Origin: Azolla caroliniana
Lineage: Eukaryota; Plantae; Polypodiophyta
Assembly: GCA_043228905.1 (NCBI GenBank)
Contig: JBHGNT010000002.1
Coordinates: 15,128,001-15,192,000 of the forward strand
Direction of reading: 5' to 3'
Length of the DNA stretch: 64,000 nucleotides
Shown here: positions 17,842 through 64,000 of the stretch, in pieces
Position numbering within the stretch: position 1 is the first letter of the stretch
Layout of the letters: the number at the start of each line of letters is the position of its first letter
Program-made: the position numbers and the translations under genes
Notes under the pieces: model-generated
Databases searched by the model: none
What the model saw: the letters and a program-made list of their open reading frames with translations, nothing else
Told to the model about the DNA's origin: nothing

Positions 17842-19289
17842 CTATCCCCCCTTTAAAACAACGAGTGTCACGAGTCGTTTTGGATGGAGGACCCGGTTTG
17901 TGTGGATATTGCCGATGGAAGTCTTCAAGAAGCGCACGAGCATTGGTCACATTCTCGATCGGTTCCCAAGTACGTTGTCGCGAAAATACGACGAGGATAC
18001 GTGAACGTTGAGGCAAGACCCCGAGGCCTTTGTCTAGAGGATATCAAATTCGTGTATTTATATACTAAGAATTAACCGAAATGAGAAAGATTAACAAATT
18101 TCATTAATAAAAGGGAAAGAAAGATTACAATCAATCCCAAGATTGGGATTACAAAAGTTTATCTTATGGAGATGATTAGAATAATAGATTAGAGGAAATA
18201 AGAGATTATGATTCTTGAGTGATATGGCTTTAACAAGGAATTTTGGATTTTGAGAGATTGCTTCCGTATAGAAATTATGGTTTACTTGAGAGATAACTTC
18301 CGTAGGGAAGATTAGGGTTATTGGCTTTGATAATATAAGAGAGCTCCCCAACAAAAGAAAAAAAATTTAGATAATATGGAGAGTGAGTCCTGGTGTAGGA
18401 AAAAAAAATTGGAATAAATATGGAGTTCTCTCTTGATCATAGCCTTCCACTTTTTGTTGCATGGCCTCTACTTTTAGTTGCCTAGCTTTTTCTTTTGGTT
18501 GCATGTGACTATCCACATGACCTTTACTTTTTCCATGCACTCCTTCTTTAGTTGCTTGCGTCCACATGGCCTTTACTTTAGTTCTCTTCACTTTACTTTA
18601 GTTTGTTGCATGATCCAATCTTTCGTCCGTCCGCGTCCAACCTCGTCCGGTAGCCGGTTCCATTCTGCTTGCCGGTCGGTTCCGGTTCCGGTTTTGCTTG
18701 CCGGCCGGTTCCAGTTTGTTTGCCAGTTGCCGGTTCTGGTTTAGCTTACCGGCCGGTTTCCGGTTTGCCTACCCGTTCCGGTTCCGGTTTTGCTTGCGGG
18801 CCTGTTCCAGTTTTGCTTACCGGCCGGTTTCCGGTTTGCATACCCGTTCCGGTTCCGGTTTTGCATATTGACCGGTTTCCGGATTTGCTTACCGGCCGGT
18901 TTCCGGTTTTAGGGAATTTGGCCACCATCATCCATCAAGACAAAGTGGCCAAAGTGCTCTTAGCACAAATGAAAAATGAGGGAGCTCAAGGTGTTTGTAT
19001 AGCCAGGGCCTTAACTTTCCTATCTATGTGGGATAGTTCTAATTTCCCTATCTAATCAAACTATATTTTCTCATAACTTGATATGTATTTCTCCATTTTG
19101 TATATAGTAAAATATATTTTGAAGCTCTTGAGTATATCCATCTTTCTATAGTAAGCTACTAATCTAATCTATAATAATTATTTCATTATTTTTTTACATA
19201 GTGTGTGAAGATTCACACGACATTCGCCCCCACCAAACCTGCACATCCACCGGTATGTGCCAATTTTGGTGAGGATTCATTTTTGTTTA

Positions 19290-22200
19290 CTATACTTTTT
19301 CATCGATGCTTAAGACTGAATCGTCAAAAGTTTCAAATCCAATTTCTATTCTATCTCTACTCTTGAAGATCTTGATTCTTTTATCGGCAATTGGCAAGGC
19401 AAGTGGTGTACCATCCAGTTCTACTAAATGATATGTTGCATTATCTTCCACTTTCTTCACCACATATGGCCCAAACCATCGTTGTGAGAATTTTCGAGCC
19501 GTACTATGTTGGTTATCTAGGCTACTGTCATAGACTAGCACCCAATCTCCTTCAACGATTTTCCTCGGCCGAAGTCGATGTCGTTTATCGAAGTCTTACT
19601 TGTTCTTTAGCCTTGCATTCTTTAGCCGCGCTTTAGCCACCTCTACGTCTTCCAAATTCTGCTCTAATTGTCGAATCCTCAATGCTAGAAGATCTTCTCT
19701 ACTTATCTCATCTTGCCATGGCAATGCAAACCATGAAATAATACTTTGTTCTACGGGCATTATTGGCTTTTGTTCGAATATGAGCTCTGCCGGCATGTTT
19801 CCCGTCACCGTGCTATGAGTAGTCCTGTCAGCCCATAATGTAAATGGTAATAGACGTGGCCATTCTCCTATTTTCCCATGGCAAGCTTTCACTAGAGCCT
19901 TCACAATCGGTCCATGTCCACGTTCCACCTTCCCATTTGCTTCCGGATTATACGCCATGGTAAGAGATAATTTGATTCCCATCCTCGAGAAGAATTCTCT
20001 AGCTTCATTGGCGTCCAACTCGCCTCTATCAGCCACTATCTTGCCGACGCATCCATATCTGCAAATAACATCTTCAAGAAGGAATCGGCATACCGATGAT
20101 GTCTCCTTAGTTCTTAATGCTCGCCCTTCAACTTGATTGGTAAGATCCTCTCTCGCGAGCACAAGATACTTCATCTGCCATCGTCCCATTGGCATCATCA
20201 CTATGTCCACCATCCACTTGTAATGCATAGCCAACGGGTAAGTCGGATGAAGTCCATCTCGATGGCGAATATTCGAAAACATTTGACATTCCTTACATGT
20301 TTCCACATAAGCTGCTACATCTTTGTAGATGCCCGGCCACCAATATTTCTCCTTAAGCTTCGCAAATGTAGCCCATATTCCTCGATGGCCTGCAAAAACA
20401 CTATCATGAAATTCGGACATTAGTTTTTGTTTGTCTTCTAGCTTGCAGACAACTCTCATCGGAGTCCCATTCTTCTTTTTTGCATGCTTCCAAAGAGCTC
20501 CATCCTTAAGGAAATATTTGTATGCTTTCTTCTGAATTCGATGGAAGTCTTCCGTCGACCATGCTTCATCTTTTTGGAGAGAACTCAAGTATTTCCCGAT
20601 CTCCACGAATTCACCTTCGTAGTCCTCTTCTATGAAAGTAGTCAACACCCGAGCATAGGAACTTGCAAAGAAATCCAAGCCAACATCATCTTCATCAGAA
20701 TGTCGATCTTCTTCTCCGTCGTATCTCGCTCATGATAGCATGTCTGTAACGACATTACGCTTCCCAGCTACATGACGGATCTCCGGGTTGAGTGATTTGA
20801 TATATGCAATCCAACGCAACATGGCAATATCCGGTGTATTACAACCAGATATCATACCCAAAATTGGTAGGCAATCTGTCTCAATTATGACTTCTGCTCC
20901 AATAAGGTAATCACGATCAGATTTGATTGCCGAGACGATCCCCCATAGCTCCCTCTTCACTTGGGCATACCTTCTTTGCCTGTCACTTAACACTTTCGCG
21001 CCAAACCGAATTGCATATCGGTTGCAATCTTCATCTTCTTGGTTGATAACCCATCCAATTCCGATTGGACTAGTATCCACAGTCACGAAAATGGGCTTGC
21101 CGTATGAATAGTCCGCTTTCCGTAATGCAGGTGCCTCCATCAATAATTTCTTCAGCCTTCGGATGGCGATTGTATGCTCGCTCGTCCATTCGAACATCCG
21201 CTTCCTCTTTAGTAGACCATATAATGGCTCAGCAATGTGGGCGTAGTGTGGAATCCAAATATGATAAAACGCGCATGCTCCAAGGAACCTTCGAACCTCC
21301 GTTTGGGTTACACATTCTTCTTTCATGTCTTGAATTGCATTCACCTTGGATGGCGAAGGCTTCCAACCGTATGCTCCACACAAGTGACCTACCACCAGGA
21401 TCTCTGGTTGCCCGAATGCGGATTTTTCTCCCGAAAATGTCAAATTCGCATCTTCGAGCCTTTGGAGCACCTTATCGCAATCTTTCATATGATCCATGAC
21501 AAACTTTCTACATCCATCCTCATCTTTTGATTCATCCTTCTCTTCATCCGAACATCCTTTTATCAGAATATCATCTAAGAATGGCATCGTGATATCCGGG
21601 ATGCAATCCTTCAAGACCTTGTTCATGGCATTCACCATATGAGCTACCGAGTTCGTTGCGCCTTGAGGTAAGGTACACATCCGCACCAACCCGATTGGAG
21701 TTCTCATGGTTGTAATGTCACGACTGTCGACCGCCAACTGGAATTGATCGTAGCCAGAGTAAAGATCGCCGATGGAGTAGATGGACCGGCCCGCAAACTC
21801 CTCGGCAAATTCATCCACACTCAGACCGATTCCAGCATTCCGAATTGTCACCTTGTTGATGGGTTGAAGATCTTGAATGAATCGCAACGATCCATTCTTC
21901 TTCGGCACCGTGAACCACCTATTAGAATAAGGAGCATTCGACGGTTCTAGAATTCCCATCCTCACCTTCTCCTTTAAGAGCTCGATCAACTTCGGTAGGT
22001 GTGCTCTCGGAACCGGTATCGGTTTCAAATTCCAAGGCACATGCGGCACCGTGAAGATCACCATCGGTTCTACCGTCCTTGGATTAGCACACCCGATTTC
22101 TTGTGGAAAAAATGCGAAAGCCTTCCTCTATATTTCAGGGAGGAGGAAATCCTCCATTCCAACTCGAAGCTTTCCCTTCGTCTCTTCAGTGAAGACGTGA

Positions 22201-22715
22201 CCAATTGTATTTGGGTTCCTTAAGCTTGGATCTTTTGCAACTTCCTTCATCTTTTGCCAGCTATCTTCCAGTAGCGGAACTGCAACTGGCTTGATCTTCC
22301 TATCCACAGTTTTATATTTTGTGTTGACTTCGACTTCCTCTATCAAGATGCCTCGATGATATTCATCGATGATAGTATACATGTTGATGGAGTTAACCGA
22401 AATCACATGTTGATGGTGAGGATAGCTCAAATCCACGACTTCCTCGATTTCGCCGATGGTGTCGTTAAATGAGACTTCCTCCAGAATATATGACACGAAT
22501 TCTTCTTCTTCGATTATGCTTTCTTCTTTCAGCACCTCCTCGGAGTCTTGTATCTGACACTTTTCCTTCTTGTTGAGTAGTCTAAGTTTGCATGCGCCGC
22601 CAGGTGTGACGCATGTTGCTTCTCCTTGCAATCCACGCACTTTGCTTCCTTGTGGGGACTTATGATTGCTCGGACTATTTGTGCCCCATGCTTCAATAGT
22701 CCGCTTTAAAAATCC
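19290..22715 (-). pseudogene. pol (RT-RH-INT) of G, reached by -1 frameshift
   Basis: ORF pieces 22128-22640, 20730-22064, 19596-20678, 19290-19541; DLYSGYDQ, LPQGATNS, FLDD, HDSVFAGH..CKEC, WFGPY. Confidence 0.93.
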
Positions 22716-24885
22716 GAGGATTCGCCTCCAAGGCTATCTCGGTTCCTTTCATGATTAGCTCACACCATCAGGAATTGAACGGATCTTTTACTATCAAGAC
22801 TCTTGACGCGCGCGAAGGCTGCTCCATTATCGAACACCTTGGTCTCCATCCGAGACGATGTTATATATGGTTGTCCTAGGATGACGGGATGTGAAGCCGA
22901 GTCTTGCACGAAGAAGTGTTGATCAATTTCTACATCCCTGATCGTGACTTTAACGTTGGGGCAAGCTCCGTACAAGTCCTCCGTAGCCTTCGTCGCCGCT
23001 CGAATCTTCCATCCGTGGTTTGTATTAATCGGCCATCTTCCTTTCTTGTAGAACTCGGTCGACATGAGGTTGATCTCAGAGCCATGGTCAATCAAAGCGA
23101 CCATGGTCTCTTTCTTCTTCCCGATCTTCACCGGTGTCTCCGTTGTCGCTCTTGCCCAATGAGGCCGCGAGTAATGGCTATTCGCCACCACTTCTTCTTC
23201 TTCCTCCTCTTCCGATCTTGTCATGGTTATGGCACTTGTTTTCACCTCCTCTTCATCAGATTGTTGCCGCTTCCTCTTAATAAGGTCCACGATAGTATCA
23301 TGGAACTCCTTCTTCGCGATCCAAAGTTGCTCTCTCAAGGTAAGGTCGACATGACTATCTAAAACCTTCTCCTCAAGGACCTTCCGCAAGTTAGTTGTTT
23401 GTTCTATGTCCGACCTTAGCTTGTAAGTCAGTGCCGCTCGTTCTTTTCCTTTCTTCGTTGATTCTTCGACTTCCATCCGAGCAGGTTGGCTCGATCCACC
23501 GGGCTTCATGTTTGTTTCACCAATCTCTTTTCTTGGGATAGGTTGGGGTGGCCCTTCTTTCCCTCCGTTCCTCGTGTTAGGTCGCTTTGATGTGCCATCT
23601 TCTTCACCGGTTCTCTTCCTCTTCTCTTCGACAAGGGCTTCATAGGTGTCACACACAACCTCCGCAAAGCTTGTGTTTTCGTCGATTGGATCTGGCCATC
23701 CGGTTGCTCGTCGCACGTTTCAGTCAGCAAGTTTTAGATCCTCCGAATTGATTTTGCCTTTTTCTTCGCACTCGAAGACCGTTGGCCAAAACCCAGCTCC
23801 TGGCTTGATCATTTTAAGATTCTCTTTTCCAACTCATATCCCAGCCGAAGCGGCATAGTGCATAGCCTCCACATGCCTTGCATCTTCTTCTTCTACAATC
23901 TTTTTCAGCCCACCTCTTCCGAAGTTCACTCGTAGTGGCTTCCAGGTCTCGCTTGAGTGAATCATGTTGCCGTCCAAATAGACGACATTCTTGCGGATCA
24001 CATCTTGCAAGTCAGCACATTCCCTTCGTGAGTGTTCAAAGCTATCGCACCACACACATCTATACGCTTCTTTTCCCTTGGGCCCGCGTCGACCTAAGTT
24101 GGTTAGCGATACCGCTTCAAACTTCTTGGAGAGCTCTTCGATTATAGACTCCTCCATTGCTTTCTTGTCGAAATTGTTGATCGGCTTACTAGGCTCAATC
24201 GTCGTAGGTGCCTTCTTCCACAATTGTGGATTCTCGACCTCAGCTTCCTCTTGCCATTGTCGCCGCTTATCAAAACGGTTGCAAGCCTTCTTCACCGCCA
24301 CCCAGTCCGCTACCAAACCATTTGGTTGTGTTTCGTCCTCCAAGAAACTACCCAATTCTCTCTGATCTTTCGCATCCATTGCCTTTAGGAATAGTAAGAC
24401 TTTATCTCCGTCGAGAACTCGTTGCTCGACACTCGGAAGTCGGTTGTACTTCTGGTCGAATTCGGCATAAATTCCCGATGCACACAGATTCTTCCCTTTC
24501 TTCTCAATCCAATTCATTAACGTATGCCGAGTCATCCGCGATGCGTCTTCAAGCATGTATTCAGTGAGAAGAGCCCTTTCGAACTCCACCCAAGTTGCAT
24601 GCTCGTTTTGGATCTCCATCACGTGCTCACGGATCCCGGGTTCTACAACACGCTTAAAGCTTGAAATTTGTTTTGGATCATGGACATCTCTTTGTTGCAT
24701 CTCATTCCGGTAGGTAGCAAGGAAATTTGTGATGTTCTTCCCACCGAATCTTCCAGTTGTCTCCACAGTTCGGTCAACAGCTTGGTCGACTAAAGCCTCC
24801 CGATCTCTCTCTTTCAGCATGAATTCGACGACAGACACCATGCCTTTCGTCAATTCTTCTCCTTGAGTTCCACTTGTCGAAGCCA
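22706..24885 (-). pseudogene. gag-protease of G
   Basis: MASTSGTQ start, knuckle CVWCDSFEHSRREC, PR LIDHGSEIN; in-frame TGA stops; natural end GAT TTT TAA at 22706. Confidence 0.9.
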
Positions 24886-26215
24886 TCTTCGTACTTGATA
24901 TCCTCCTACTACCTCGTTTCACGTCGGGTTTCACCAAAGATGTCGCGAAAATACGACGAGGATACGTGAACGTTGACGCAAGACCCCGGGGCCTTTGTCT
25001 AGAGGATATCAAATTCGTGTATTTATATACTAAGAATTAACCGAAATGAGAAAGATTAACAAATTTCATTAATAAAAGGGAAAGAAAGATTACAATCAAT
25101 CCCAAGATTGGGATTACAAAAGTTTATGTTATGGAGATGATTAGAATAATAGATTAGAGGAAATAAGAGATTATGATTCTTGAGTGATATGGCTTTGACA
25201 AGGAATTTTGGATTTTGAGAGATTGCTTCCGTATAGAAATTATGGTTTACTTGAGAGATAGCTTCCGTAGGGAAGATTAGGGTTATTGGCTTCGATAATA
25301 TAAGAGAGCTCCCCAACAAAAGAAAAAAAATTTAGATAATATGGAGAGTGAGTCCTAGTGTAGGAAAAAAAAATTGGAATAAATATGGAGTTCTCTCTTG
25401 ATCATAGCCTTCCACTTTTTGTTGCATGGCCTCTACTTTTAGTTGCCTAGCTTTTTCTTTTGGTTGCATGTGACTGTCCACATGACCTTTACTTTTTCCA
25501 TGCACTCCTTCTTTAGTTGCTTGCGTCCACATGGCCTTTACTTTAGTTCTCTTCACTTTACTTTAGTTTGTTGCATGATCCAATCTTTCGTCCGTCCGCG
25601 TCCAACCTCGTCTGGTAGCCGGTTCCATTCTGCTTGTCGGTCGGTTCCGGTTCCGGTTTTGCTTGCCGGCCGGTTCCGGTTTTGCTTGCCGGTCTGTTCC
25701 GGTTTTGCGTACCGACCGGTTTTCGGTTTGCATACCCGTTCCAGTTCCGGTTTTGCTTGCCGGCCGGTTCCGGTTCCGGTTTGCTTACCGGCCGGTTTCT
25801 AGATTGCATAACGGCCAGTTTCCGGATTCGCTTACCGGCCAGTTTCCGGATTTACTTACCGGACCCGTTTTCCGGATTTGCTTACCAGCCAGTTTCCGGT
25901 TTTAGGGAATTTGGCCACCATCATCCATCAAGACAAAGTGGCCAAAGTGCTCTTAGCACAAATGAAAAATGAGGGAGCTCAAGGTGTTTATATAGCCAGG
26001 GCCTTAACTTTCCTATCTATGTGGGATAGTTCTAATTCCCCTATCTAATCAAACTTTATTTTCTCATAACTTGATATGTATTTCTCCATTTTGTATATAG
26101 TAAAATATATTTTGAAGCTCTTGAGTATATCCATCTTTCTATAGTAAGCTACTAATCTAATCTATAATAATTATTTCATTATTTTTTTACATAGTGTGTG
26201 AAGATTCACACGACA

Positions 26216-31531: not shown

Positions 31532-33492
31532 GTTAGAGATGGCTATGGACGAGTCAATGGCGGATGGCCGTGTCGAGATTTTCTCCACACTTGTTCTAGA
31601 GACTTGGGCAGTTGCATCAAAAAGTAAACGTGAGACCCAAGAGACGGAAGGTGGTGGCGAGGGAGTGAAGGCCGAGGATAACACATGCGAAGGAGATGTC
31701 AAGATGAAGAGGGTAGACGATGATCATGAAGAGACTTTCCCCACAAAAGTTCTTGAAACTTGGGCATTAACCGATGTAAGACCCAAGAGACAGAAGGTGG
31801 CGGCAAAGAAACAAAGGTCAAAGACAATGCGAACAACCATAAGGTGAAAGTGGCTAAGGGTAGCACGACAAAGGCAAATGCCAAACTACAAAATTCCTCC
31901 ACACTCGTTTGAGAGACTTGGGCATTAACCGATGTAAGACCCAAGAGAAGGACGATAGTGGCGAGGAAGCAAGGGTGAAAGCCAATGTGTTGAACAAGGA
32001 AGTAAAGCAAAGCAAAATGATGAAAGTCCATGCGCGCGACAAAGAGGTCAAGCAAAGCAAAATGATGAAAGTCCATGCACGCAACAAAGAGGTCAAGCAA
32101 AGCACGAAGACAAAAGCTAATGTGTGCGACAAAGAGACCAAGCAAACCTCAAAAAGAAAAGATATGGGCCAAGTGAGCCAAGCGGATACGAAAGATGTGA
32201 TCACAAAATTTAACAAGGATAATACTAGTGTAGAAGTCATAGTCAACTTAAAGACGAGAGTATACCACAAAAGTGGACAAAGTGGGAAGCATGCAATGTA
32301 GTTACTTAAGGACCTACAGGAGAGCATGTCGTTAAAGAATGGACCACTAAGAGTACTCAACCATAGTATTTCGATAAGGCTTTTGAAAGACATGCATGGA
32401 ACAAGAAAGAATGATAAGAGAAAATTAGATGGCTGAAATGAAGGTGGCACAAGCATAAGGAGTGAAGCATTATGCTCTAGAGGAGCAAAGAGAGCCATGA
32501 CAAATGGTCATGGAAATGCAAAGACTCAATGAAGAATATGGTGGATCGGATGGCAATGACGATTCGGGTACATCAATAAAAAAGTAAACTAATCAAAAGT
32601 GGAGCCTCACCAAAATTGGCACATATCAGTGGATGTGCAGGTTTGGTGGGGGTGAATGTCGTGTGAATCTTCTCACACTATGTAAAAATAATAATAATAA
32701 AATAAGTACTTTATATTAGCTTAATGGCATGTTATAGATAGATTGATGTTTGAGAAGATAGGGAAAAAAAGAACTATAATTTATCGCACATAGATAGGAA
32801 ACTTAAGGCCCTGGCTATATAAGCACTTTGAGACCCCTCATTTTCATTTGTGCTAAGAGCACTTTGGCCACTTTGTCTTGATGGATGATGGTGGCTAAGT
32901 TCCCAAATTCGGAAACCGGCCGGTAAGCAAAACCAGAACCGGGCTGGTAAGCAAAACCAGAAATCGGCTGGTAAGCAAAACCGGAACCCGACCGGAAAGC
33001 AATCTGGAACCGGCGAAATCGGCAATTGGATGGTGTCGGAAATCGGGTGGATCCAACAACTAGCGACGATCGAGACGAACAGATGATAGGATCATGTGGC
33101 TAATTAAAGTGAAGTGAAGAAAACTAAAGTAAAGGTCGTGTGGACGGTCGCATGCAACTAAAAGAAAAAGCCATGCAACTAAAAATAGATGCAGCTAAAA
33201 GAAAAAGCTATGCAACTAAAAGTAGAGGCCATGCAACAAAAAGTGGAAAGGCTATGATCAATGGAGAAGTCCATATATATTCCATTTTTTTTCTTACACT
33301 TATACTCTCTCCATTATTTTTCTTTTCCTTCTCAGTTCCCTTATCTTATGGAAGCCATAACTCTCATAATCCCTAAATTTCCTTATGGAAGCCATAAACC
33401 CTAAATTTCCTTACGGAAGCCAAAATCCCTAAATTTCCTTACGGAAGCCATAAACCCTACATTTCCTTACGGAAGTCACAAACCCTAATCTT

Positions 33493-34241
33493 TGACAGGA
33501 ACTACACGCTTCGATGAACAACGCTCGGCCACAACCGAGTCTAAAATCAAGCACAGAAAACGGGTAATGAACACACGACACAAAAGTGAGAGAAGAGTGC
33601 ACAGGATGTTTAACGTGGAAAACCCTGAGAGGGAAAAACCACGGGAGTCCACCGACTCCAAACTATCACTATATCACAATGATTACAACAGTGAGTTCAC
33701 GGAGGCAACAACCTCGTGCTCACGATCTTCGCCACAGGCGGCGGTTAAAATAGAGGCAACGACCTCTTCCTCTCTTTCTCTCTCTGTGTACACTGTTACA
33801 CACTCTCTAGTCTTGCACCAACAAGAATGACAACAACAACAACTAAAGTTTGCCCTAAGTCATATTTATACTAATATGACTTTTCGGCTATTTACAAATA
33901 TAGCCCTGATGGACTCTCAAAAACATATTTACGAATATGTCCCTTCATCCAGTGAGCACTCCTCACCAGGCCTGCATCATCTGGCGCTTGCCGGGTGCAC
34001 GTCATCCGGTTCTCACCCGGTCTTCCATTGCTGGGTACCCCACATCCGGTTCTCACCGGGTCTTCACCATCCGGCTCTTGCCGGGTAATCGTCATCTGGT
34101 TCTCACCGGGTCTTCCGTAGTCGGGTCTTCGTCATCCGGCGCTTGCTGGGTACACCACATCCGGTTCTCACCGGGTCTTCCGTAGCCGGGTTTAGGGATT
34201 GTTCTTCTCACTTCCCATCCGGAAGGACCTGGTTCCTAACA
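33493..34241 (-). repeat. Solo LTR of the Copia H family inside the 3' LTR of E
   Basis: Homologous to 46085-46736; TSD atctt/atttt; E LTR sequence resumes on both sides. Confidence 0.9.
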
Positions 34242-38490: not shown

Positions 38491-38650
38491 CTCGACTTCA
38501 CCCTTGCTAGGGATAACCGTTTCCCTTCCGGCCCGGCGTTGCCCAAAGTGACAACCAACGTCTCCCAACTATTTGGGAGGGAACCGAGCAGGAGTAGCGC
38601 TAGTACCTCATCGGCGAGAGTTACTTCCAATGATGTTGCCTGGTGGATCA

Positions 38651-41600
38651 TGTTACGGGCATGACCATATAATATCCCGTGGTAAGAATTTACCGTAGTA
38701 TTCTATACACATGGATAAGTGTGAGGGTTAAATGAGAGTGTAAAGAAGGGGAGGATTACTTTTAATCCTCGGGATTGAGACAACCCATTAGGTCAAGTGT
38801 GAACTTGCCTGGGGGCCTTGGGTTTCGCTATAAATAAGAGGCCTAGCTACCCTCATTTGATCATCTTTTGACTACATCGAGACTCTGCTCGTGTGGCGGG
38901 TCAACTCTTGTAGCGAGCGCGCCAGCACCAGGTACGACTCGACGCCACGGCGGTGGTATGGGACGCCGATCGAGGCTCGAGTCCGTCTCGATCCCTTCGC
39001 TCGGGGGTGGTCGGGTGGATCGGCACCCTTCTTTCTCTTTCTCCTTTCTATCTTTCATTTCTTTATCCTTATCTTAAGCTTACGTTAGTACCAAGATCTA
39101 TAATATTTGGTATCAGATTTTTGTACTAATGTTTCTTTGTTTTTCATTTGTCTTTTGATTCATGCTGATCGATCGTTGTGCGGTTGGCCTTGATCCAGAC
39201 AACGATCAACAAAGAACTTCGGTAACTCTTTCCATAATTTTCTTTCTATTCTCTCTTCTCCCATCTAATCATGTGTTTAGTTTATATGTAATTTTTTTTC
39301 ATTAAGTCAATGATGTTGTAGTGGTCTTTAATTGATTATCTAAAACGTTTACATATGTGCACGAGTTCAATACCTCGTTTGACATGTTAATAATATGTGA
39401 TGAGTGTCGTATGCGTACGAGGTTAATATCTCAATTACGTATTACGTTCACGAACATATGTTACGTTTGCATATGAGTTTAATACCTTGATTTGTTGTAA
39501 ACGATATGCGTTTGGTCTCGTATGCGTAAGAGGTCAATACCTCCATTGCGTATTACGATGATCTCTTATTTGTGGATGTTTCGTGTGCGTAGAGGTATAT
39601 ACCTCGATTACGTATCTCGATCACATCATTTGTGGCTATTTACTATAACGATATGTTGAATATAGGCATATGTGGTCACATATATACGTATTTGATCGTA
39701 TATATGTGATAAGTAAACATATGTGTATATTCGTTATTACGTGATTATATCGAAAGTTGTCATGATCGGGAAAAGGATGTTGGTGGCCGTCCTCACATTT
39801 TTGTGAGAATGGCGTTGTCACCATCCCTTTTTCAACATTTTTTTATTGTTGATAACCCCGTTGACGACCTCGATTTCGTTACGTAAAGAAACGCCAATAG
39901 CCAAAATGATGTTGAGTACGTAGGGCTTGACCCACTTCAAGTGAGGTCGCTCCAATGACGCGCGTATCCAACATCCCTCCCTCGTTACATGGATACGATG
40001 CCACCATGAGCTCGTTCTTACGAGAGGCATTCGTAATGACGTGACCATGTGATGGCGCACGTGAGCCTACTACGAAACGAGGGCTCATTTGGCTTGACCA
40101 TTAGGTTGCACTTTGGCGTATGCCATCGTAATTACGAGACTTGAGGTTAGGTAACGTACCAACATAGTTTTGGTAAATGAGGGCGAAATAAGGACCCTTG
40201 ACATATATGTTCTTTTAAAAAAACATATATGATCAATTGCCTCGCATATCTCTTATACGCATCAAACATTAAACATTCGAGAAGACCAACTTACTTGGTT
40301 GGCTCAAGTGTTTAATGTATTTGTTCTCGAGGTCTCGAGTTCAAATATGACCAAGACCATACGACATCCTTGATACATATGACTATACCACATGTTTAGA
40401 CTTAAGGTCTAAGTGCACCTCGGGGTCCTCGTAATAGGACTTAAAGAGCCGAAACCACTTATGTGGGCACCAAAACATAGTTTATTGTTAACATTTTTTT
40501 CGTGTATAAACTATTCATGACGCGAACATACATGGTTGAGCCTCGGGGAGCCACCATGAAAAAATCGATATAGAGATCAGGGAAAGACATTTATTTGTCA
40601 CCCCCATGGTTTTTAAAACACCTTTGTGTTACCATAGTAACCTGATCTTGAACCTCATCTCATACGTCTAGAGGGGTATTGACGTGAGATAATGATATCG
40701 ATTAATGCTCGCCCATGATATGTTTACATCACGACATGATGTTATGACTATATCTCTGACCTTATCCTATTTCTTTTCCAGAAATAATCTTTAATGGCTC
40801 AAATTAACGACCCGATGTCATCCGCTCAAGCAGAAGGAACTCAAGGGAATCCTCCTGGACAAATGTCCACTGAGATGTATTTGGCACAAATAACCCAATA
40901 CCTTAGTTTCACCGCTCAACAGATGACCGAACTTCGGCAATCTCAGAGTGCTCTTGAGGCACGTGTCATTAGTCTACAACGTGAGACTAATAGACCTGAT
41001 GAGCGACAGGGTGAACCATCATTTGTCGTTAAGCCATTTACGGGAGACAAAAAAGAAAGAACCGAAGAAGCAATCTGCACATGGCTGGGACGATGGGAGT
41101 CTCATTTTGAGCTCTATCCCACGCCAGATAGTACGAAGATTGCATATGTCGGCTGAGAACTCGGGGGTAAGGCCGCCGCCTGGTGGCGTGGCCTCCGTAC
41201 TATGGGGAAATTGCCCGATACCTGGACAGATTTTGTCACGGTTTTTAAGGGCCAATTTCTGCAACCTCCCTCTCGAACCGAGGCAGCACAAGCTTTAATG
41301 AACCTCTCTAGCAGGAAATTTTCCTCGCTAGAAGACTATGTTCACCATGCTAGAACCCAAATCCAAAAATCGGGTCTAGAAGGGGACAATTGGTTGATAG
41401 CTTGTTTTGTCAATGGCATCCCCAATTCGGACTATCACTGGATAGTGCACGATAAGGATCCAAAATCCTTCGAAGAGGCCGTTGAAATAGTTCTTCGCTA
41501 TCAACACACTTCGAAGAAGGACCATAACAAACCCAACGAAGCGCCCGGGACTAACCAGTTGCAATTTGTTGGGAAACGCAAGACACCCAACGAATTCCTG

Positions 41601-44600
41601 GATCGCGATTGTAAGCGACAACATCCTTTTTGTGTATTCTGCAAAAAGAAGGGTCATACAAAAGATCAATGTCGAAAGCTCCAACGGAAAGAGCACGACA
41701 ACAAAGCTAAAGCTGCAGACCATAAAGGTCAGATTCCTAATGTCCTTCAGGTCTATACACATCATTTAAGTAATTGTCAATGTTCTTTCCCTCACTATGT
41801 ATTGGGTCCCAATGATTTACTACGTGCAAACGGGTATATCAATGGATCTCCCGTACAATTTTTATTTGATTCGGGAAGCTCACACAATTTTGTGAATGAT
41901 CGTTTGGTTCGGATATGGGGAATCCAACCCACCGTAAGTGATCACACCTACACGGTGCACTTGGCTGATGGAAGAGTACAATACTTCAACGGGGCGATTC
42001 ATTCATTAGGAATTTCTATTGATACTTATATAGAGGAAGTAGACTTCCATGTAATGAATCTTTGTACCACCGATGTAATACTGGGTTATCCCTGGTTTTA
42101 TAATAAAAACTCTTCTTTATTTATTGATTGGGTTCGTCATTCCATTTCTTTTGTACTGAACGATTGTACGCATTTTATTCAATGTGTAAAAAAACAATCC
42201 CTCTCGATTGTTTCCTCGTGTCCATCAATATCCGAGTTGTCTTGTTCTACGTTATTTTATTGTGTACTTGATCTGGACATTCACGTTTACAATATCGATA
42301 ATGTCCCGATTCAATTAACATATTTTGAACAACAACAACTTGATGAAATCTTAAATGATTTTCATGGTGTTTTTCCAAGTGAACTACCTGATGGGTTACC
42401 TCCTAAACGTAATATAGACCATCGTATAGATATTGTACCTGGTGTTGCACCAATAAGTATACCTCCGTATCGCTTAAGTCGATCCGAAGAAGATGAGGTA
42501 TCTAAGCAACTCAAGGACTATTTACGAATGGGTTATATACGTTATAGTAAATCTCCATGGGGTGCACCAGTTCTCTTGGTTAAAAAGAAAGAGGGCACAT
42601 GGCGTATGTGTATTAATTACCGACGCTTGAATAAAGTGACGATCAAGAATTCGTATCCATTGCCCCGGGCTGACGATCTAATTGACCGTCTCCAGGGAGC
42701 TCGGTATTTTACGAAACTTGATCTCCGTACTGGCTACCATCAAATACGAATAAGTGAGGACGATGTTCCTAAAACGGCATTTTGTACGCGCTATGGCCAT
42801 TACGAGTTTTTGGTTATGCCTTTTGGTTTGACCAACGCTCTGGCTACTTTTCAACAAGAAATGAATGACATTTTCCGAGAACAACTTGGAAAATTTGTCG
42901 TTATTTTCTTGGATGATATTTTAGTTTATAGCCGTACATTACAAGAACATGCTAGACATGTCCGCTTTGTTTTACAAACATTGCGTGACAAACAGTTTTA
43001 TGGGAAGATCTCAAAATGTGAGTTCTTCAAGAAATCAATTACTTATCTAGGACATCTCATAACCGAACGAGGAGTTGAAATTGATCCTTCTCGCATTGAG
43101 AAAATCAAGCTTTGGCCCACTCTTCGGAATATTCGAGAAGTTCGATCATTCCTTGGTTTTGTGGGGTTTTTGCGAAAGTCTCTTCGTAATTACTCCCAAT
43201 TGACGACGCCGTTTACTGATCTTTTAAAAGGTCAAACGCGTAAGTCTACAAAACCTATTGTGTGGAATGCTACACTAGACCTTGCCTTTAAGGAACTCAA
43301 GGACCTGGTTTGCAAGGCTCCTTCACTTCTTTTACCCGATCCTTCAAAACCTTTTGAGGTTGAAACCGATGCAAGCGATTATGCTATAGGTGCTGTCTTG
43401 TATCAAGATGGTAAACCAATAGCATTCGAGAGTAAGAAACTTGATTCTACTCAATGTCGCTATACCGTTCAAGAAAAGGAATTATTTGCAGTTATACATG
43501 CGCTCAAAACATGGCGCCATTATCTTTATGGAAATCACTTTGTGGTAACCACGGACCACGAGTCCTTGAAATATTTTTGTGACCAACAAGACTTGAAAGG
43601 TCGTAAGGCACGATGGGCAGATCTCATCCAGGACTTTGATTTTTCCATACGATATCGTAAAGGTTCCATGAACACTGTCGCTGATGCACTAAGTCGCATC
43701 CGTGAAGTTAACATGCTTAGCTTCACTGAAATATCATCAGATCTTTATGATCACCTTCGAGGAAAGTATCCTGATGACAGTTATTTTGCAAAATACTGGG
43801 CAAGAGTTGAGTCTGGAACAGACACCACCACATCCTCGAAGGAATACTTCCACATTGCTAACGGTTTGCTCTACCGTAATGGGAAGGTTTGTGTTCCAGA
43901 TTTACCCAAGGTCAAAAAGAGGATTCTTTTTGAATGCCATGATGCACCCTGAGCAGGGCACCCTGGAATACATCGTACACTCGTTCTCATCTCCACTCAA
44001 TTTTATTGGCCTAAGATGCGTCCTGACATACATAGCTATGTGACTAAATGTCACCAGTGTCAGGTTAACAAAGCCGAGCGACTTAAAGCCGAAGGACTTT
44101 TACATCCCTTGGACATTCCCAATAATAAGTGGGAAAGTATATCCATGGATTTTATTGTTAGCCTTCCTCGCACCCAAAAAGGTCATGATGCCATCTGGGT
44201 TGTCGTTGATCGACTAACTAAAATGGCCAGATTTATTGCTACTAAAACCACGGTAACAGCTCCTGAATTGGCTTACCAATTCGTTGACGAATTGTTTCGT
44301 TTTTATGGGTTACCGATGGATATCGTGAGTGATCGAGATCCAAAGTTTACTAGTGACTTCTGGACACAAGTCTTTAAGAAGTTAGAAACTACGTTGAGCA
44401 TGAGCTCCACGGATCATCCTCAATCCGATGGACAGACAGAACGAGTAAATCAAATTATTGAGGACATGCTTCGAGCATACGTTGGTGCAAAACCAACAAA
44501 ATGGGAACGTTATCTCCCAATTTTGGAGTTTGCTTATAACAGCTCCAAGCATACGTCGACGGGATATAGTCCTTTTATGTTGATGTATGGTTTTCAGCCA

Positions 44601-45668
44601 CGAGCCCCGATTGATGTTACTATCCATCATGATGAGTTGCGAAGTACGCAAAACTTTCTTCGGGATATGCAAGATATGTTGCATATTGCACGAGATAATA
44701 TAAAAACAGCTCAAGATAGAGCGCGTTTTTATGCCGATCATCATAGGCAACCTCGTGTATTCAACCCTGGACAGAAGGTATTTTTACGTGTACCTCACAA
44801 TTCTAAGACATTGTCTACGGGTAAGTGCGCTAAGTTAGCCCCACGGTTTTGTGGACCTTTTACAGTCCTCAAACGCATTGGGTCATCAGCCTATCGTCTC
44901 GCTCTTCCCGATGGTGTTGGAATTCATCCAGTCTTTCATGTGAGTCGTCTAAAAGAACTTCTAGGTTCTGGCGACAATACAGTTACGACTGAAACTCTGG
45001 TTACTTCTGAAGAATTATCTTCTAAACCACATGTGCTAGAAAGAATTCTCGATGTTAAAACAAAAAAATTACGTACTAAAGAAATCCGAGAATTTAAAAT
45101 AAAATGGATGGATAAATCAATAAAAGATGCCACATGGGAACGCGAAAATACCGTTAGAACTAACTTCCCTAACTTTCCATTGCAAGAGTGCAATGTTTTA
45201 AAGAGGGGGAGTATGTTACGGGCATGACCATATAATATCCTGTGGTAAGAATTTACCGTAGTATTCTATACACATGGATAAGTGTGAGGGTTAAATGAGA
45301 GTGTAAAGAAGGGGAGGATTACTTTTAATCCTCGGGATTGAGACAACCCATTAGGTCAAGTGTGAACTTGCCTGGGGGCCTTGGGTTTCGCTATAAATAA
45401 GAGGCCTAGCTACCCTCATTTGATCATCTTTTGACTACATCGAGACTCTGCTCGTGTGGTGGGTCAACTCTTGTAGCGAGCGCGCCAGCACCAGGTACGA
45501 CTCGACGCCACGGCGGTGGTATGGGACGCCGATCGAGGCTCGAGTCCGTCTCGATCCCTTCGCTCGGGGGTGGTCGGGTGGATCGGCACCCTTCTTTCTC
45601 TTTCTCCTTTCTATCTTTCATTTCTTTATCCTTATCTTAAGCTTACGTTAGTACCAAGATCTATAATA
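38651..45668 (+). mobile_element. Young chromovirus J (Ty3/Gypsy, tRNA-iMet PBS, group II-type chromodomain)
   Basis: 455-bp LTRs 38651-39105 and 45214-45668, two differences noticed; TSD gatca; PBS tggtatcaga at 39108; PPT aaagagggggag ending 45211. Confidence 0.97.
40794..45227 (+). pseudogene. Single-frame gag-pol of J with two premature TGA codons
   Basis: ORFs starting 40794, 41202 and 44016 share one frame; stops at 41154 and 43950; [36 protein letters not shown], chromodomain ERILD..IKW..ATWE. Confidence 0.95.
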
Positions 45669-46400: not shown

Positions 46401-49400
46401 CACGGTTACGCGCTCTCTAGTCTTGCACCAACAAGAATGACAACAACAACAACTAAAGTTTGCCCTAAGTCATATTTATACTAATATAAATTTTCGGCTA
46501 TTTACAAATATGGCCCCGATGGACTCTCAGAAACATATTTATGAATATGTCCCTTCATCCGGTGAGCACTCCTCACCGGGCCTACATCATCCGGCGCTTG
46601 CCGGGCACACGTCATCCGGTTCTCACCGGGTCTTCCGTTGCCGGATACTCCACATCCGGTTCTCACCGGGTCTTCCATAGCCGGGTTTAGGGACTATTCT
46701 TCTCACTTCCCATCCGGAGGGACCTGTTTCGTAACAATTTTCCCTATAGAAGCCATATCTCTAAAAACCCCTAATTTTTCTTTTCTATTAATCTTAGTAA
46801 ACCTAAAACTTCTAAATCCCAATCTTGGGACATATTATAATTTCCTTTTCCTTTGTTAATGACTTTATATACGCGATCCACATGAGCATCATCAAGTCTG
46901 GAGTCGCACATCGGGAAACCATGTCGAGAATCGGCAAGCAGTTTGTCTCGATAATTACTTCCACCGTTATCAAATAGTCTTTGTCGGCCTTAACAGCCGA
47001 AACGATACCCCTGAGCTCGCGTTTAACGGCAAATCCTCATTGTCGGTCGCGTAGTACCTTCACGCCGAACCGGATGGGAAACCTCATGCCGGCCTCGTCG
47101 TCATGATTGATCACCCATCCGATTCTGGTCGGGCTCGTGTCCACCATCACGAAAACGGAGTGCCCTTCTTGTACGCCACTTTCTGGAGAGCCGGTGCCGC
47201 CGTTAGCTTTTCCTTCAGTCTCCGGATCGCCTCCATGTGCTTGTTGCTCAATTTGAATTTCCAGCCTTTCTTTAGCAAGCCATAGAGTGGCTTGACAATA
47301 TGTGCGTAGTTCAGAATCCAAACGTGGTAGAAGGTGCACGCCCCAAGGAACCGTCGGATTTCCGTGACCAACCAATACTCTTCCTTCATCGCCGAGAAGG
47401 CCTCTACCTTCGGCTGAGACAGTCTCCAGCCATATGGCCCGCATAGGTCATTGACTACTAGGATCTCTGATTGTCTGAAAGCCTACTTCTACCCGGAGAA
47501 GGTAAGTCGAGCGCCCTCAAGCCTGTGCCATATCTTCTTGCAGTCAGAGATGTGGTCCAAAACAAATCCCAGGCATCCGTCTGCCACGATCGACTCATCT
47601 TTCGCGTCCTATGAACATCCCTTGATCGGGATGTCCAAAAATGGCAGGGTGATGTTCAGGATGCAGTCCCTCAACACCTTGTTCATCGCATTCACCATGT
47701 GCGCCACTGAATTGGTTCCCCCTTGCGGTAGGGTACACATCCGAACTAGGCCGAGAGGGGTTCGCATTGTTGTGATGTCTCTACTCTCCACAGCTTGTTG
47801 GAACTAGTTATACCTAGAGTATAAGTCGTTGACCAAGTAGATAGACCTTCCAGCGAAGGCCTCTGCAAACTCGTCGATCGTTGGACCGACTCCTTCATTT
47901 CGAATGGTCACCTTGTTGACCTGATGCATGTCTTGAATAAAGAGCAGTGTGTTGTTCTCTTCGGCACCATAAACCACTTATTCGAGTATGGGGCGCTTGA
48001 CGGCTCAAGGATACCCATATTGACCTTCTCCTTGAACAGCTCCATCAACTTCAGGATGTGAGCTGTTGGTACCGGAATCGGTTTGAGGTTCCACAGTACA
48101 TGCGACACTGCGAAGATCACCATCAGTTCTACGATTGTCGGGTCAATGCACCCAATCTCCCCCGATGAGAATACAAAGGCTTTCCCATGCATCCCGAGCA
48201 TCCTCTAAAACCAGTCCAACTCTGTCGGCAGTAGGAAGCCAACCCCACCAATCTTCAGCTCCCGTAGCGTCTCATCGGTGAACCAGTGCCCTATGTCGGC
48301 CAAATCTCATAAACTCGGGTCCATCGCGACCCCTTTCATCCATTCCCAGCTGTCCTCCGGCAAGGGAGCCATGACTGGCCTCACCTTCCAGTCCACAATC
48401 TTGTACTTTGTATCTACTCGAGCGGTCCAATCCGACCTGATCATCTTCCCGAAGTCCGCCATAACTTCGTACATCTCGACGGAATTTACTGGAACAACCC
48501 GATCTTCGCTAAGATACTCCTCCACTACCCTCTTGATCTCCCCAAGGGTGTCATCGAATGAGACCGCCTCTACGACACTACTACTCGAGTTGTCAAGGTC
48601 CAAGGCTCCACGTGCCTTCAGACGCCTTTCAACTTGCTTCTTCTCCCGACCACCAATGCCGGCTATAGTACATGTGTGGGGTTTCTAGAGAGCCAAAATT
48701 TCCTACTTATGTACATGTGTGGGGTTTCTTCCGGTTGTCCGGACTATCATGGCCCCATGCCTTGATAGTCCTCTCTAAAGATCCTCTCGGCTCTCTCCGT
48801 CGAGAGAATCTCGGTTTTGTTCATGATTCGGCCTTACTGTTAAGAAGTGGACGGAGTGCTTACCGTCCTGACTCTTTACCCTCACATATGTCAAACCGTT
48901 GTCCAGCACCTTCATTTCCATCCAAGCCGCCATAATGTAAGGTTCACCAAGAATTACCGGGTGGGAGGATGTCTCCTACACGAAGAAATGTTGGTCTATT
49001 TCGACGTCACCGACCTTCACCTTGATGTTCAGGCACACATCATGAAGCTCCTCGGTAGAGCGGGTTGTCGTGCATATCTTCCAATCATGCTTCGTGTTGA
49101 TCGGCCACTTCCCCTTTTTATAGAAGTCCATCGACATCAAATTGATTTCCGATCCGTGGTTGATCAACGCCACCACCGGCTCCTTCACATCCCCGATTTG
49201 GACCGAGGTCTCTGTCGTCACTCTGGCCCAGTGTAGGATCATATAGTGGCTATCCGGAAACTCCTCTTCCATCGCCACCTCTTCGATGTGGGCCGCATTC
49301 ACTTCAACCGGCTTCTTCGACCCTGGCTCCGTCGAAAACCGCTTCCTTTTTACCACGTCCATGATGGAATAATGGAATTCCCTCATTGTTATCCCTAGCA

Positions 49401-60302: not shown

Positions 60303-62895
60303 TGGTCCGAGACCACCGTGGTCCTGCCTCTTTCAACACGCACGCGCGTAACAACGCGACATATTTGGTGAACCCGACGTGAAACGGGCAGCAAAGGAGT
60401 CGAAAGATGAGGGGATCGGAGCTAGCAGAGGCAATGGCGGTAGCCGTCGACCGGCTGGTAAGCGCTCGCGAGGGGACGGGTACCCTCAAAAGAGCCATGG
60501 AATCGATCGTCAGCATTATAGGCCAGTTCGGAGGGAAAGACGCCACAAGTTATTTGGAGGCTTACGGGGCCGAAATGATCATGAGGGATATCCCGGTGGA
60601 CAGGCGGCTGTCCGGATTCCCTCGGGTGGTGACGCCGAGCATCCATGCGGAGGTGCTTGAGGTGCTGGCCGGATGTCAGACTTGGGAGGAGTTCCAGTTG
60701 CGGCTCCTTGTGAAGTACGGGTTTGACAACTCACTTCGGCTGACGAGGCCGGACTTCATGGTGTGGGTGGAAAGCCCCGGAAAAGGGAGGAACATGTCGG
60801 TGCTCCTCCAGGAGTTCGAAAAACGGTTCGCGCGGCTGTCGACGCTGGACCGGACAGTGCTCGAAACGAGTCGAGTAGTACTGTTTGTCAAGTCCCCTAT
60901 TGGAAACGGACGAAGGGCTCATGGCAGACTAGGCCGTGGTAAAACAGGTCTGTGGCCGTTTCAACAAACGACGCGATTGGAGCGACGGAAGCTCGTCGGG
61001 GTCAGGGCTGGTCCCGGGGAGGAGGCTCGAGGAGCCGGTATCGGTGCCGGCCGGTAGGAAGGAAGAGACCCGAATCTGGTTAGAGTTGGGATCGGCATCG
61101 AATGACGTGGTCAAACGCCCATCCGGAGGAGCGGCTCTGGAAGAGCTGACGCATATGGTGCGTGACCTGCAGATCACGCAGGCCCGGAGAGACAACGGCG
61201 AACAACCTCACGACCGGAGGCTGCTGGCTGGGCAGCAGTGCATGTGGTGTGACGCGATCAGTCACATTCGGAAGGATTGCGCGGATTTCGCCGATGCGCT
61301 CAGGACCAACGTGGTGTACCTCTAGAACGGGCGGGTGCACGCGAGTGAGACCCGGAGAGCCCTAGAGCTAAATACGGGGCGCGGCGGAATGAAGAGGTTG
61401 ATGGAAGAGGTCGCGGCACGGCACGTTGAAGCCGTTAACTACTTAGTGTCGGCGGGAATTCGGGTCGGGGGTGATGAGACCCGGAAGGCGAAGGACTCCG
61501 GATTCTGGTAGCTAGTGCTAGAAGGCCTCTCCGGAGTTCGGCTGAAGAAGGAAGAGGCAGACTGTGCGGAACAACGGGTCCAGGAGGTCACCGGTTGGGA
61601 CGATCCGGTCGAAGAGAAAACGGGCTTCGTAGAAGCGGCTTGCCAGAACTACGAGGTTTTGGTGGAGGACAAACGGGCAGGAAAGGTCGGAGGGGTCGGT
61701 CCCCCACAGAGGTATGAGACCCGGTTTGGACCGAAACCGACCGGTGCCGGCAACCCAGGTGCGCCGGACGGAAAGAAGCAGGTGGGGTTTCGGTTAAGCA
61801 CCGAAATCGAGAGGACCACAGACCTGCGAAAGGTCCTGGAGGAACGTATCCTCGACAGCAAAGTGGAGCTATCGCTGAGGGAGGTGCTCAGGATTGCCAA
61901 GAAGGAGTTCCACGACTCCATCGTAGACTTGGTGAAGAGGAAACGGCTGTTGACGAGGCCGGAACCAGAGAAGCCGGTGGAGGTGCGGACCACGCACTTG
62001 GAAGACGCGGCCCTAGAAGACGAGTTGGCGGAAAGCCACTACACGAAGCCGCATTGGGCCAGGGAAACTACGGAAACCCCCGTACGGATCGGCAACGTTC
62101 CGGAACCGGTGGTGGCCTTGGTAGACCATGGATCCGAAATCAACCTGATGTCCATGGATTTCTATAAGAGGGGTAAATGGCCAATCAACACCAAGCATGG
62201 CTGGAAAATATGGGCGGTGACACGCGCCACGGAAGAACTACATGGAGCCGGTCCGAACGTACGGGTGAGAATCGGCGATGTCGAGATCGACCAGCACTTC
62301 TTCATGCAGGAGACATCCTCGCATCCGGTTATACTAGGAGAGCCATACATTACGGCAGCACGGATGGAGACCAAGGTGCTAGACAACGGTTTGGCCAATG
62401 CAAGAGTCAAGAGCCAGGACGGGCATCACTCGGTACAGTTCCTGAAGGTGCGACCAAACCATGAGCGTAATTGCGAGGCCCTCGGCGGCAAAACCCGAGG
62501 GGATTTTTAGAGAGGGCTATCAAGGCGTGGGGCCGCGATAGTCCGGACACTCGGAAAAAACCCCACAAATGTACAGTAGGGAAGAAGACCTGTACCATAA
62601 GTAGGAAATTTTGGTTCTCCAACAACGGAGGTTGTACTATGGCCGACGTCAACGGTCGGGAAAGGAAGCGTGCGGAGGAGCGGCTCAGGGGATGTGGAGT
62701 CCTCTTCCCCGACGAGATCAGTGGCGCCGTGGATGCGGTCTCTTTTGATGACACCTTGGGCAAGTTGCGAAAGGTGATTGGTGAAGACCTTAGAGAAGAC
62801 CGGGCCGTTCCGGTAGGTTCGATGGAAATGTACGGAGTCATTGCGGACTTCGGGGAAAGGATCGGGGCGGATCGGACGGCCCGCGTGGATACGAA
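59676..62895 (+). mobile_element. Gypsy element M (D/G family), 5' half: LTR 59676-60361, tRNA-Trp PBS, gag-PR, start of pol
   Basis: tgtcgtg..cgcgaca; PBS 60366-60383; gag FGGKDAT, knuckle CMWCDAISHIRKDC, PR VDHGSEIN ending GDF-stop at 62510. Confidence 0.9.
60245..60300. repeat. (CT)n microsatellite in the M LTR
   Basis: Direct reading. Confidence 0.97.
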
Positions 62896-64000
62896 GGAAG
62901 CAATCAGGCTCGAACTGCCACAGGCACTATGGTCGGGAGTAAAGGAGAAAAGGAGTAAGTTGGCACCCCATGCAACAAAATGCATATTTCTTGGTTATGG
63001 AACCAATGGGGAATTCGGCTACAGACTGTGGGACCTAGAGAACCGAACATTGATATGTAGTACTGACGTAGTCTTCAATGAAAACTCTATCCTCTCTAAG
63101 CAGAGCCAACAGAAAATAGTTGGTAAAAAGGTATCCTTTGAAATCAATAGAGATGGCGTAGAAGGACCGTACCACTAGGCCGAATCGGAGATTCGACAAC
63201 TAGTTGAACTTGAAGACAAAGCCATCAAAGGCAAAGCCGAAGCGACAAGAATAAAAAAAGGCAAAGTCGACAAGGTACAAGTCAGAATCGATAGAGTTCG
63301 ACCCGACTAAAAACACCCAAGGCTAAGTCCCCTACCTCGAATTCAATCAATCCCGAGCAAGGGGAGGATGAAATGACATCGTTGAACTCCTATTCCAAGG
63401 GCAAGTCATACAATAGGACTCTTGACATAAGTGGTTCAACAAATATTGATCGACCAACAGAGCCGATCGAAGGATCTGAACCGATCACTTCGGCACCCAG
63501 GATATTTGGAGAAGTTCGAAGGCTTACAGAGTTCTATCAACTAGGCCTCGACTACGTCAACTACACCGATGCAAGCGAACCAAGCACATACGAAGAAGCT
63601 ATAGCCGCATCGGACGCTGATACATGGCTACAAGCTATGCAATCTGAGTTGGACTCGATACGACACAATCAAACATCGGAGCTGGTCGAACTACTAGCAG
63701 GAAGGAAGCCACTACCTTGCAAATTGGTCTTCCAGGGACAAATATGTATCCGACTCTGAGAAACCCAAATACAAAGCTCCGCTTGTTGCGAAGGGATTCA
63801 AACAAAAACACAGGGTCAAAAAGTGGCAAGGCCACAAGGTTCTTGGACAAAGGAGCCGGTGAGAGTAGGAAAGTTCTTCGGATCAGTAAGAAGATGAGCA
63901 CACGGACTCCCTCGCTCATACACACAACACGACAGGAATACACCGAAGACAAGAAGCGAGAAATCCAAAACACATGGAGAGACTCAACGAATTAACGATG
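62896..64000 (+). repeat. Second copy of 12537-13760 (deleted Copia fragment fused to a D-type LTR)
   Basis: Colinear from ggaagcaatcagg to cgaattaac with the same internal deletion and the same Copia/LTR junction. Confidence 0.9.

Follow-up and report, generated by a model that had tools for sequence, protein, structure and literature searches.

How does a retrotransposon make its polymerase when the reading frame for its structural protein and protease closes before the reverse transcriptase (RT) begins? The question is raised by three copies of a Gypsy-type long terminal repeat (LTR) element in a 64,000-nucleotide stretch of Azolla caroliniana DNA (contig JBHGNT010000002.1, positions 15,128,001 to 15,192,000; hereafter the window, in whose coordinates positions are given). 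We read the junction between protease and RT in this family as a recoding signal shared across the lineage, one that very probably directs a -1 ribosomal frameshift after the protease.

In copy M (plus strand), the last open stretch of the gag-protease frame (61512..62510) encodes a DUF4100 tail and an aspartic-protease-like D-x-G-S-E-I-N region, and it ends on G GAT TTT TAG (62501-62510). The slippery heptamer G_GAU_UUU (62501..62507) supplies the last Gag-protease codons, Asp-Phe, and the zero-frame stop UAG (62508..62510) forms the first half of a 6-nt spacer (62508-62513). Stem 1 of a predicted pseudoknot follows at 62514..62544, where 62514-62521 pairs with 62537-62544 and inner pairs are added; it encloses the 5' strand of stem 2 (62527-62532), whose 3' strand, CCCCAC, lies at 62561..62566. 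The -1 frame reads GFLERAIKAWG and continues as a protease-to-RT linker (62501..62896) that is truncated by a Copia fragment before RT. Copy G carries the cassette at 22653..22715 on the minus strand, where the frame ends on G GAT TTT TAA (22715-22706; heptamer 22715-22709, UAA 22708-22706), stem 1 occupies 22702-22672 and the 3' strand of stem 2 occupies 22657-22653; its -1 frame reads GFLKRTIEAWG within the open reading frame (ORF) 22128-22733. In copy D (48719..48784, minus strand) the heptamer is mutated to GGATCTT (GGAUCUU in the RNA) and followed by TAG (48784-48775), with stem 1 intact (48771-48741) and CCCCAC present. RT-proximal homology resumes in the -1 frame in all three copies.

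The first-pass annotation of this DNA had described these junctions and proposed that each is followed by a stem, and our folding agrees: z = -3.6, -3.6 and -5.5 for M, G and D, with 0/200 shuffles equally stable. The compensatory change that it reported, C-G in M and D versus U-A in G, is present at cassette columns 21/37, and the proposed pairing between loop and downstream sequence can form (GUGGGG with CCCCAC; 62527-62532 with 62561-62566 in M). The 21/37 change is the one compensatory change that M, G and D provide by themselves, and the covariation case depends on related loci. The copies are also damaged: gag of copy M contains stops and a frame break, and the copy becomes the Copia fragment near 62896, upstream of RT; copy G has stops in gag-protease (23836, 23722 and 22762) and in pol (22130, 20732 and 19598); copy D combines its altered heptamer with a frame change further on. 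With all three broken, the window alone is unable to settle the frameshift question.

The frame change across the lineage

The locus set (n = 85) consists of the best 80 of 171 related metagenome loci, two loci from prokaryote assemblies and the three window copies. Nine loci were left unscored (six without the anchor motif, one ending early and two rearranged), and 58 of the 76 scorable loci pass a filter that retains pol frames open for at least 200 codons or up to the contig end. Protease and RT in one frame, an arrangement that the annotation had named as incompatible with its proposal, occurs at 0/85 loci. Among the 58 loci with open pol, 52 carry GGATTTT and 4 carry GGATTTC with pol at -1, so that an in-phase slippery heptamer lies at a -1 ORF overlap in 56; the other two carry AGGTTTTT with pol at -2/+1. 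When the filter is lifted, 61/73 loci have 120 open codons at the start of the pol frame and in neither alternative frame, and 12/73 have them in no frame.

The same layout is visible at the protein level. The protease region of copy M has 120 homologues listed of 123 found, including 68 raw ORF calls; 43 of these 68 end in Asp-Phe-stop, despite a preceding tail that varies in length and sequence, and 18 end in Pro-Leu or Pro-Phe, mostly five residues past Asp-Phe. Over the 168 proteins from two homologue searches, the endings are DF (63), DF+5 (33), NF (3), VF+1 (3), GF+5 (2), VF+5 (1) and other (8); the remainder comprises 23 proteins that run on (22 eukaryotic gene models and one raw ORF) and 32 without the anchor motif. 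At the level of protein, the GF+5 and NF endings suggest heptamer variants G_GGU_UUU and x_AAU_UUU, in which the A-site Phe would always be kept. More distant relatives (23-31% protease identity), two of which are raw ORFs, carry Gag and Pol in a single ORF, and the split therefore belongs to this land-plant clade.

The stop does not follow the heptamer immediately in every case, and at two loci it lies 15 nt further on. These form a subclade (L054:6519-6543 and L078:935-959) in which the late stop falls within stem 1. Physcomitrium and Adiantum proteins with DF+5 endings resemble this layout.

Heptamer, pseudoknot and competing readings

The first G of the heptamer is the third base of 11 different codons, specifying ten amino acids, and is kept in 20/20 of the -1 families; the product of background frequencies is about 1e-11, a figure that is overstated since the families are related. 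The Asp codon is GAT in 20/20 of these families (background 66%) and the Phe codon is TTT in 18/20 (background 46%). Judged by this conservation at the nucleotide level, the heptamer is selected as RNA. The identity of the zero-frame stop varies, with TAA at 29, TAG at 28 and TGA at 12 loci. A first triplet of the form G_GA is a listed exception to the X_XXY_YYZ rule, used by some umbraviruses, dianthoviruses and insect flaviviruses according to the available portion of a review (PMC5009743).

A gap-free alignment of 22 families places stem 1 at columns 14-25 with 33-44 and stem 2 at columns 27-32 with about 59-64. In the -1 families the predicted H-type pseudoknot starts 6 nt 3' of the heptamer, within the 5-9 nt range of stimulators. 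The annotation had proposed covariation in a larger alignment as a check, and covariation holds across the 22 families: paired cells amount to 81%, versus 72% in shuffled alignments and 38-42% in slid registers, double-sided changes occur at 15/18 pairs, and 0/500 shuffles attain any of five measures. Among 11 branch-disjoint family pairs, 11 double changes preserve stem 1, compared with a permutation mean of 2.2 (1/5000, column permutation). Pairing survives 21/26 changes in the 8-bp core of stem 1 and 9/28 in the inner four pairs; the stem reaches 12 bp in some families, its inner 4 bp often being mismatched. For stem 2, permutation yields 345 versus 290 (0/20000), and clear compensations are found in L054 (CAAGG/CCUUG), L077 (GCGAGA/UCUCGC) and L061 (AUGAGGGU/ACCCUCAU), with L072 as another clear case. 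We regard the core of stem 1 as the strong part of the predicted structure and stem 2 as the weaker part.

Contigs of three DNA runs, at 80% likeness, give the cassette a depth several-fold higher than that of the preceding protease tail, with no indel listed. This pattern fits a sequence kept across families, although depth does not equal copy number. The same three runs contain a second, smaller depth peak 3' of the pseudoknot (62587-62630); copy D contains a partial duplicate of this segment (48668-48711). The segment may be another conserved element, or else a motif conserved in the linker.

Taken as a frameshift signal, the cassette would operate as follows. The pseudoknot would make the ribosome pause while GAU is occupied by tRNA-Asp and UUU by tRNA-Phe; upon slipping, tRNA-Phe would re-pair fully on UUU and tRNA-Asp partly on GGA. 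The majority of ribosomes would terminate at the zero-frame stop, and a minority would slip back one base and produce Gag-protease-Pol. Protease would then be made at the level of Gag, and rationing would be limited to RT, RNase H and integrase.

Could the two frames be joined or expressed in another way? The linker from heptamer to RT bears directly on this: the ratio of nonsynonymous to synonymous substitution rates (dN/dS) is 0.10-0.42 in 12/12 pairs, and Met positions are not conserved, which argues against both an Ogre-type intron and reinitiation. Ogre elements join the frames by splicing out an intron that separates protease from RT, according to the accessible part of the REXdb paper (PMC6317226), and gene models of Riccia and Physcomitrium connect protease to RT via predicted introns. 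We nevertheless consider such an intron very unlikely here, because the pol frame is open from the heptamer across the entire linker and is under the coding selection just described, and because a fixed heptamer would be left unexplained. Of the fused Riccia models that we examined, four omit the conserved QFLTV..NHERN motif, a fifth and a sixth join elsewhere, and sister models from the same cluster are split in two. Eight RNA reads pass over the M-type junction without a joint, too few for much weight.

Separate production of Pol, whether through reinitiation, internal initiation or a subgenomic RNA, with the structure serving that process or packaging, is similarly improbable. A stop directly before a stable structure would suit this arrangement, and a structured element might additionally act in packaging or dimer formation; against it stand the lack of a conserved AUG (in the 22 families, the distance from the start of the pol frame to its first Met ranges from 7 to 112 codons), a pol ORF that often opens merely 3-14 codons upstream of the heptamer, and a wobble G and GAT/TTT codon choice that would be without purpose. 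Slippage of a polymerase or of RT at the T run, adding a base in some RNAs or copies, is hardly credible: the five-T run does include the first base of the stop codon, but it is short, is broken in the GGATTTC variants, shows no indel at 5% or more in the three DNA runs and has no need for an RNA pseudoknot at ribosome distance downstream. Readthrough of the stop codon was rejected, since pol lies in another frame and all three stops occur.

Several observations weigh against a pseudoknot-stimulated -1 frameshift. Re-pairing in the P site is poor, both for GAU to GGA and for GUU to AGG. The inner four pairs of stem 1 form in only 10-16 of the 22 families, part of stem 1 is broken in L040, and a common variant (L005, L019) has a C.A mismatch at columns 20/38, next to a compensated A-U to G-C change at columns 19/39. 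Stem 2 consists mostly of a G run paired with a C run, in a register that shifts among families, and on the independent family pairs self versus swapped pairing gives five wins, five ties and one loss. A single series of related assemblies supplies most of the loci, and the window copies are dead. Finally, one raw ORF, P0178, passes from protease to the pol frame and terminates 71 residues past the QFLTV motif, and the 22 eukaryotic gene models continue past the junction. As read from the proteins rather than from DNA, P0178 appears to be a decayed copy and the run-on models appear to contain predicted introns. P0189, P0190, P0111, P0116 and many public Physcomitrium models span the junction but lack the conserved protease tail; these bridging models are probably annotation artefacts caused by the frameshift.

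On balance, the annotation's proposal that these elements make Gag-protease and, by frameshifting, Gag-protease-Pol is the best reading, given 0/85 one-frame loci and covariation across 22 families. The signal resembles classical -1 frameshift sites such as Rous sarcoma virus (RSV) gag-pol, human T-cell leukaemia virus type 1 (HTLV-1) pro-pol and the infectious bronchitis virus pseudoknot in its heptamer, 5-9 nt spacer, H-type pseudoknot and long stem 1. In RSV, the protease is encoded in gag. The family studied here differs from the classical sites in that it is a plant retrotransposon with a single shift, a non-canonical G_GA and, in most families, a stop adjoining the heptamer. The location of the shift between protease and RT is shared with HTLV-1 pro-pol, as described in the available portion of the same review (PMC5009743). 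That portion also bears on the annotation's comparison with dianthoviruses and umbraviruses, which holds for the G_GA heptamer and fails for the stimulator, long-range in those viruses (PMC5009743). In dianthoviruses, umbraviruses (pea enation mosaic virus 2) and insect-specific flaviviruses, a zero-frame stop likewise lies close to G_GAU_UUU, at a distance of 3 nt in pea enation mosaic virus 2; whereas the plant viruses pair a bulged stem-loop with a distant 3' element, the present family has a local pseudoknot (PMC5009743, same portion). The shared heptamer implies no homology.

A candidate -2 signal in two families

Two loci depart from the common layout. At L061:2835-2900 and L067:2497-2562, the slippery site is AG_GUU_UUU, pol lies in the -2/+1 frame, and the pseudoknot of the family starts 5 nt further on. 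Their Gag-protease ends in Q-V-F-D and Q-V-F-Y, respectively, on C AG GTT TTT (G/T)AC TAG, and their pol ORFs of 1153 (L061) and 1100 (L067) codons contain RT, RNase H and integrase (Pfam). They are sister taxa with 77.5% DNA identity and a Shimodaira-Hasegawa-like approximate likelihood ratio test value of 100 in a quick tree. In the L061-type protein cluster, 6/15 listed members reach the junction, and 6/6 of these have the same ending. No indel occurs at the site in the contigs of 3/3 DNA runs, which represent three studies and three coded organisms. A run search with the L061 junction listed no matching RNA run, and one raw RNA run yielded two reads on L061, none of them at the junction.

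The pseudoknot is fully kept in both loci, with 10-12 bp in stem 1 and 7-8 bp in stem 2. Position L061:2868 is T in nearly all of the depth (two runs) and pairs opposite A in inner stem 1, as in L067. A -1 slip would lead to an immediate stop in L061 and to a stop after five codons in L067. As the spacer is 5 rather than 6 nt, a ribosome that has slipped by -2 would be positioned as one that has slipped by -1 in the other families. [quoted passage not shown] The optimal spacer for -2 shifting is 1-2 nt shorter than that for -1 (PMC3458567). The 5-nt spacer fits this published spacer-tension rule, which makes a natural -1 to -2 switch likely.

The case comprises only two families, and the frame alone cannot separate a -2 shift from a +1 shift, which counts against a firm assignment. 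A +1 shift in L061 and L067, with tRNA-Phe moving from UUU to UUG/UUU, would yield the identical frame and would avoid the poor re-pairing of tRNA-Val on AGG after a -2 slip. We consider it unlikely: the octamer equals a known -2 site, UUU is followed by an ordinary sense codon, a +1 shift at the stop would have no possible re-pairing (GAC/UAC to ACU), and the pseudoknot is kept at a spacing from which a -2 slip leaves the A site at its family-usual distance from stem 1. The sequences thus point to a slip that is probably of two bases. We also favour, with slightly less assurance, a natural switch from -1 to -2 on one pseudoknot, with G_GAU_UUU and a 6-nt spacer in the one form and AG_GUU_UUU and a 5-nt spacer in the other. 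The quick tree, which has a very long outgroup, does not resolve the placement of the -2 pair within the -1 families and does not give the direction of the switch.

The closest parallel is the arterivirus nsp2TF site (AG/GG_GUU_UUU in PRRSV), at which, as in L061 and L067, the -2 frame is the productive one and slipping by -1 brings an early stop. PRRSV uses no RNA structure and needs nsp1beta together with a poly(C)-binding protein, whereas L061 and L067 have a covarying pseudoknot 5 nt downstream. They would work like the PRRSV site but are not that system, which lacks RNA structure and relies on a C-rich motif to which viral and host proteins bind. The uses of -2 shifting named in the available portion of the review are phage Mu, arteriviruses and Trichomonas vaginalis virus 1 (PMC5009743).

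Other proteins also carry Val-Phe close to their end. The Riccia sorocarpa proteins P0082, P0118, P0204 and P0206 end their Gag-protease in R-V-F-P-D-S-L-L; as far as the proteins indicate, this family fits G_GUU_UUY in the -1 register and may be an intermediate to the -2 form. P0143, which ends in W-V-F-P, was considered as a third -2 family and not counted: its DNA is not among the loci, and its cluster partner ends differently.

The element family and its significance

Element G is the whole copy in the window, spanning 8240 bp (17976..26215, minus strand) with LTRs at 26215-24941 and 19222-17976, a primer site near 24936 and broken gag-protease and RT-RNase H-integrase frames. Its LTRs are 94.6% identical, have TG..CA ends and are flanked on both sides by an ACGT target duplication, a 4-bp duplication of NCGN form in the one element examined. 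The domain order is the Gypsy-type GAG-PROT-RT-RH-INT, and neither a chromodomain nor a second RNase H family was detected in 4/4 whole pol ORFs (Pfam, E<=0.01). A conserved primer site, TGGTGAACCCGAC, follows the LTR end in copy M (60366..60383, plus strand) and in 36/82 related loci; copy G has the same site with one extra base. We take this site to be of the tRNA-Trp type, as did the annotation.

In REXdb, the Phygy lineage of non-chromovirus Ty3/gypsy elements has a tRNA-Trp primer site in 81% of cases, a 4-bp NCGN duplication, a length of 7.7-10 kb and no extra domain; its ORF organization is given as 'ND', and it is listed as Physcomitrella-specific (PMC6317226). The present family shares the primer-site type, the NCGN duplication, the length (element G falls inside the Phygy range) and the lack of an extra domain. 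Named protease homologues are from Physcomitrium, Adiantum and Riccia, the nearest being Physcomitrium proteins (48-63% identical in the protease region), several of which end in KDFGEVPL or DF. Two differences are that relatives also occur in Adiantum and Riccia, not in Physcomitrella alone, and that GAG-PROT overlaps RT-RH-INT, an organization not among the prevailing types in the REXdb table. By these features, rather than by an RT tree with REXdb references, we provisionally file the family as a Phygy-type Gypsy LTR retrotransposon. The viral contigs searched contained no relative. The two loci from prokaryote assemblies lie on short contigs (L081 and L082; uncultured cyanobacterium and Streptomyces) and are probably plant DNA contamination.

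The position of the shift, which the annotation had called unusual for plant LTR elements, is indeed absent from the REXdb organization table, where the overlaps, in Tcn1 and Selgy, come after GAG, and PROT is followed by an intron in Ogre and by a stop in Retand but nowhere by an overlap (PMC6317226). Ogre and Retand split GAG-PROT from RT-RH-INT at the same place in the polyprotein, Ogre by an intron and Retand by a single in-frame stop, and both have an extra RNase H, of which Pfam found none here. With its linker open and under coding selection, and without a second RNase H, the family does not qualify as Ogre. A 2003 survey found just two types of plant element whose frames are separate, in both cases by +1, as reported in the available portion of the frameshifting review (PMC5009743), and the accessible passages of a 2025 review of plant elements mention frameshifting in general terms only (PMC12786077). 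Our full-text literature search, with subscription journals outside its coverage, found no earlier description of the -1 or the -2 signal.

The window contains further elements. The Copia-type fragment that interrupts copy M before RT (62896-63884) is 91% identical to a second one at 12537-13526. A different, young Gypsy element at 38650-45668 has LTRs that are 99.6% identical and encodes Gag, protease, RT, RNase H and integrase in a single frame, which is interrupted by one TGA near 43950. Short tandem-repeat arrays with units of about 23-28 nt occur in LTRs of the family at 18659-18877, 25647-25868, 16126-16323 and 33337-33534. Rfam, at gathering scores, gave no match within the window.

The Gag:Pol ratio of plant LTR elements is thought to be set mostly via splicing or single ORFs. 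Here, a large lineage of repeats in mosses, liverworts and ferns has a short, covarying candidate -1 signal at an unusual position, and a frameshift would explain why annotation tools call such elements broken or invent introns in them. The -2 subclade would supply -1 and -2 signals that share one structure and form a natural pair, suited to studying how spacer length relates to slip size. If the switch is real, a replicase would depend on a -2 signal that is natural, cis-acting and driven by a pseudoknot, and the lineage would put the mRNA-tension model to an evolutionary test.

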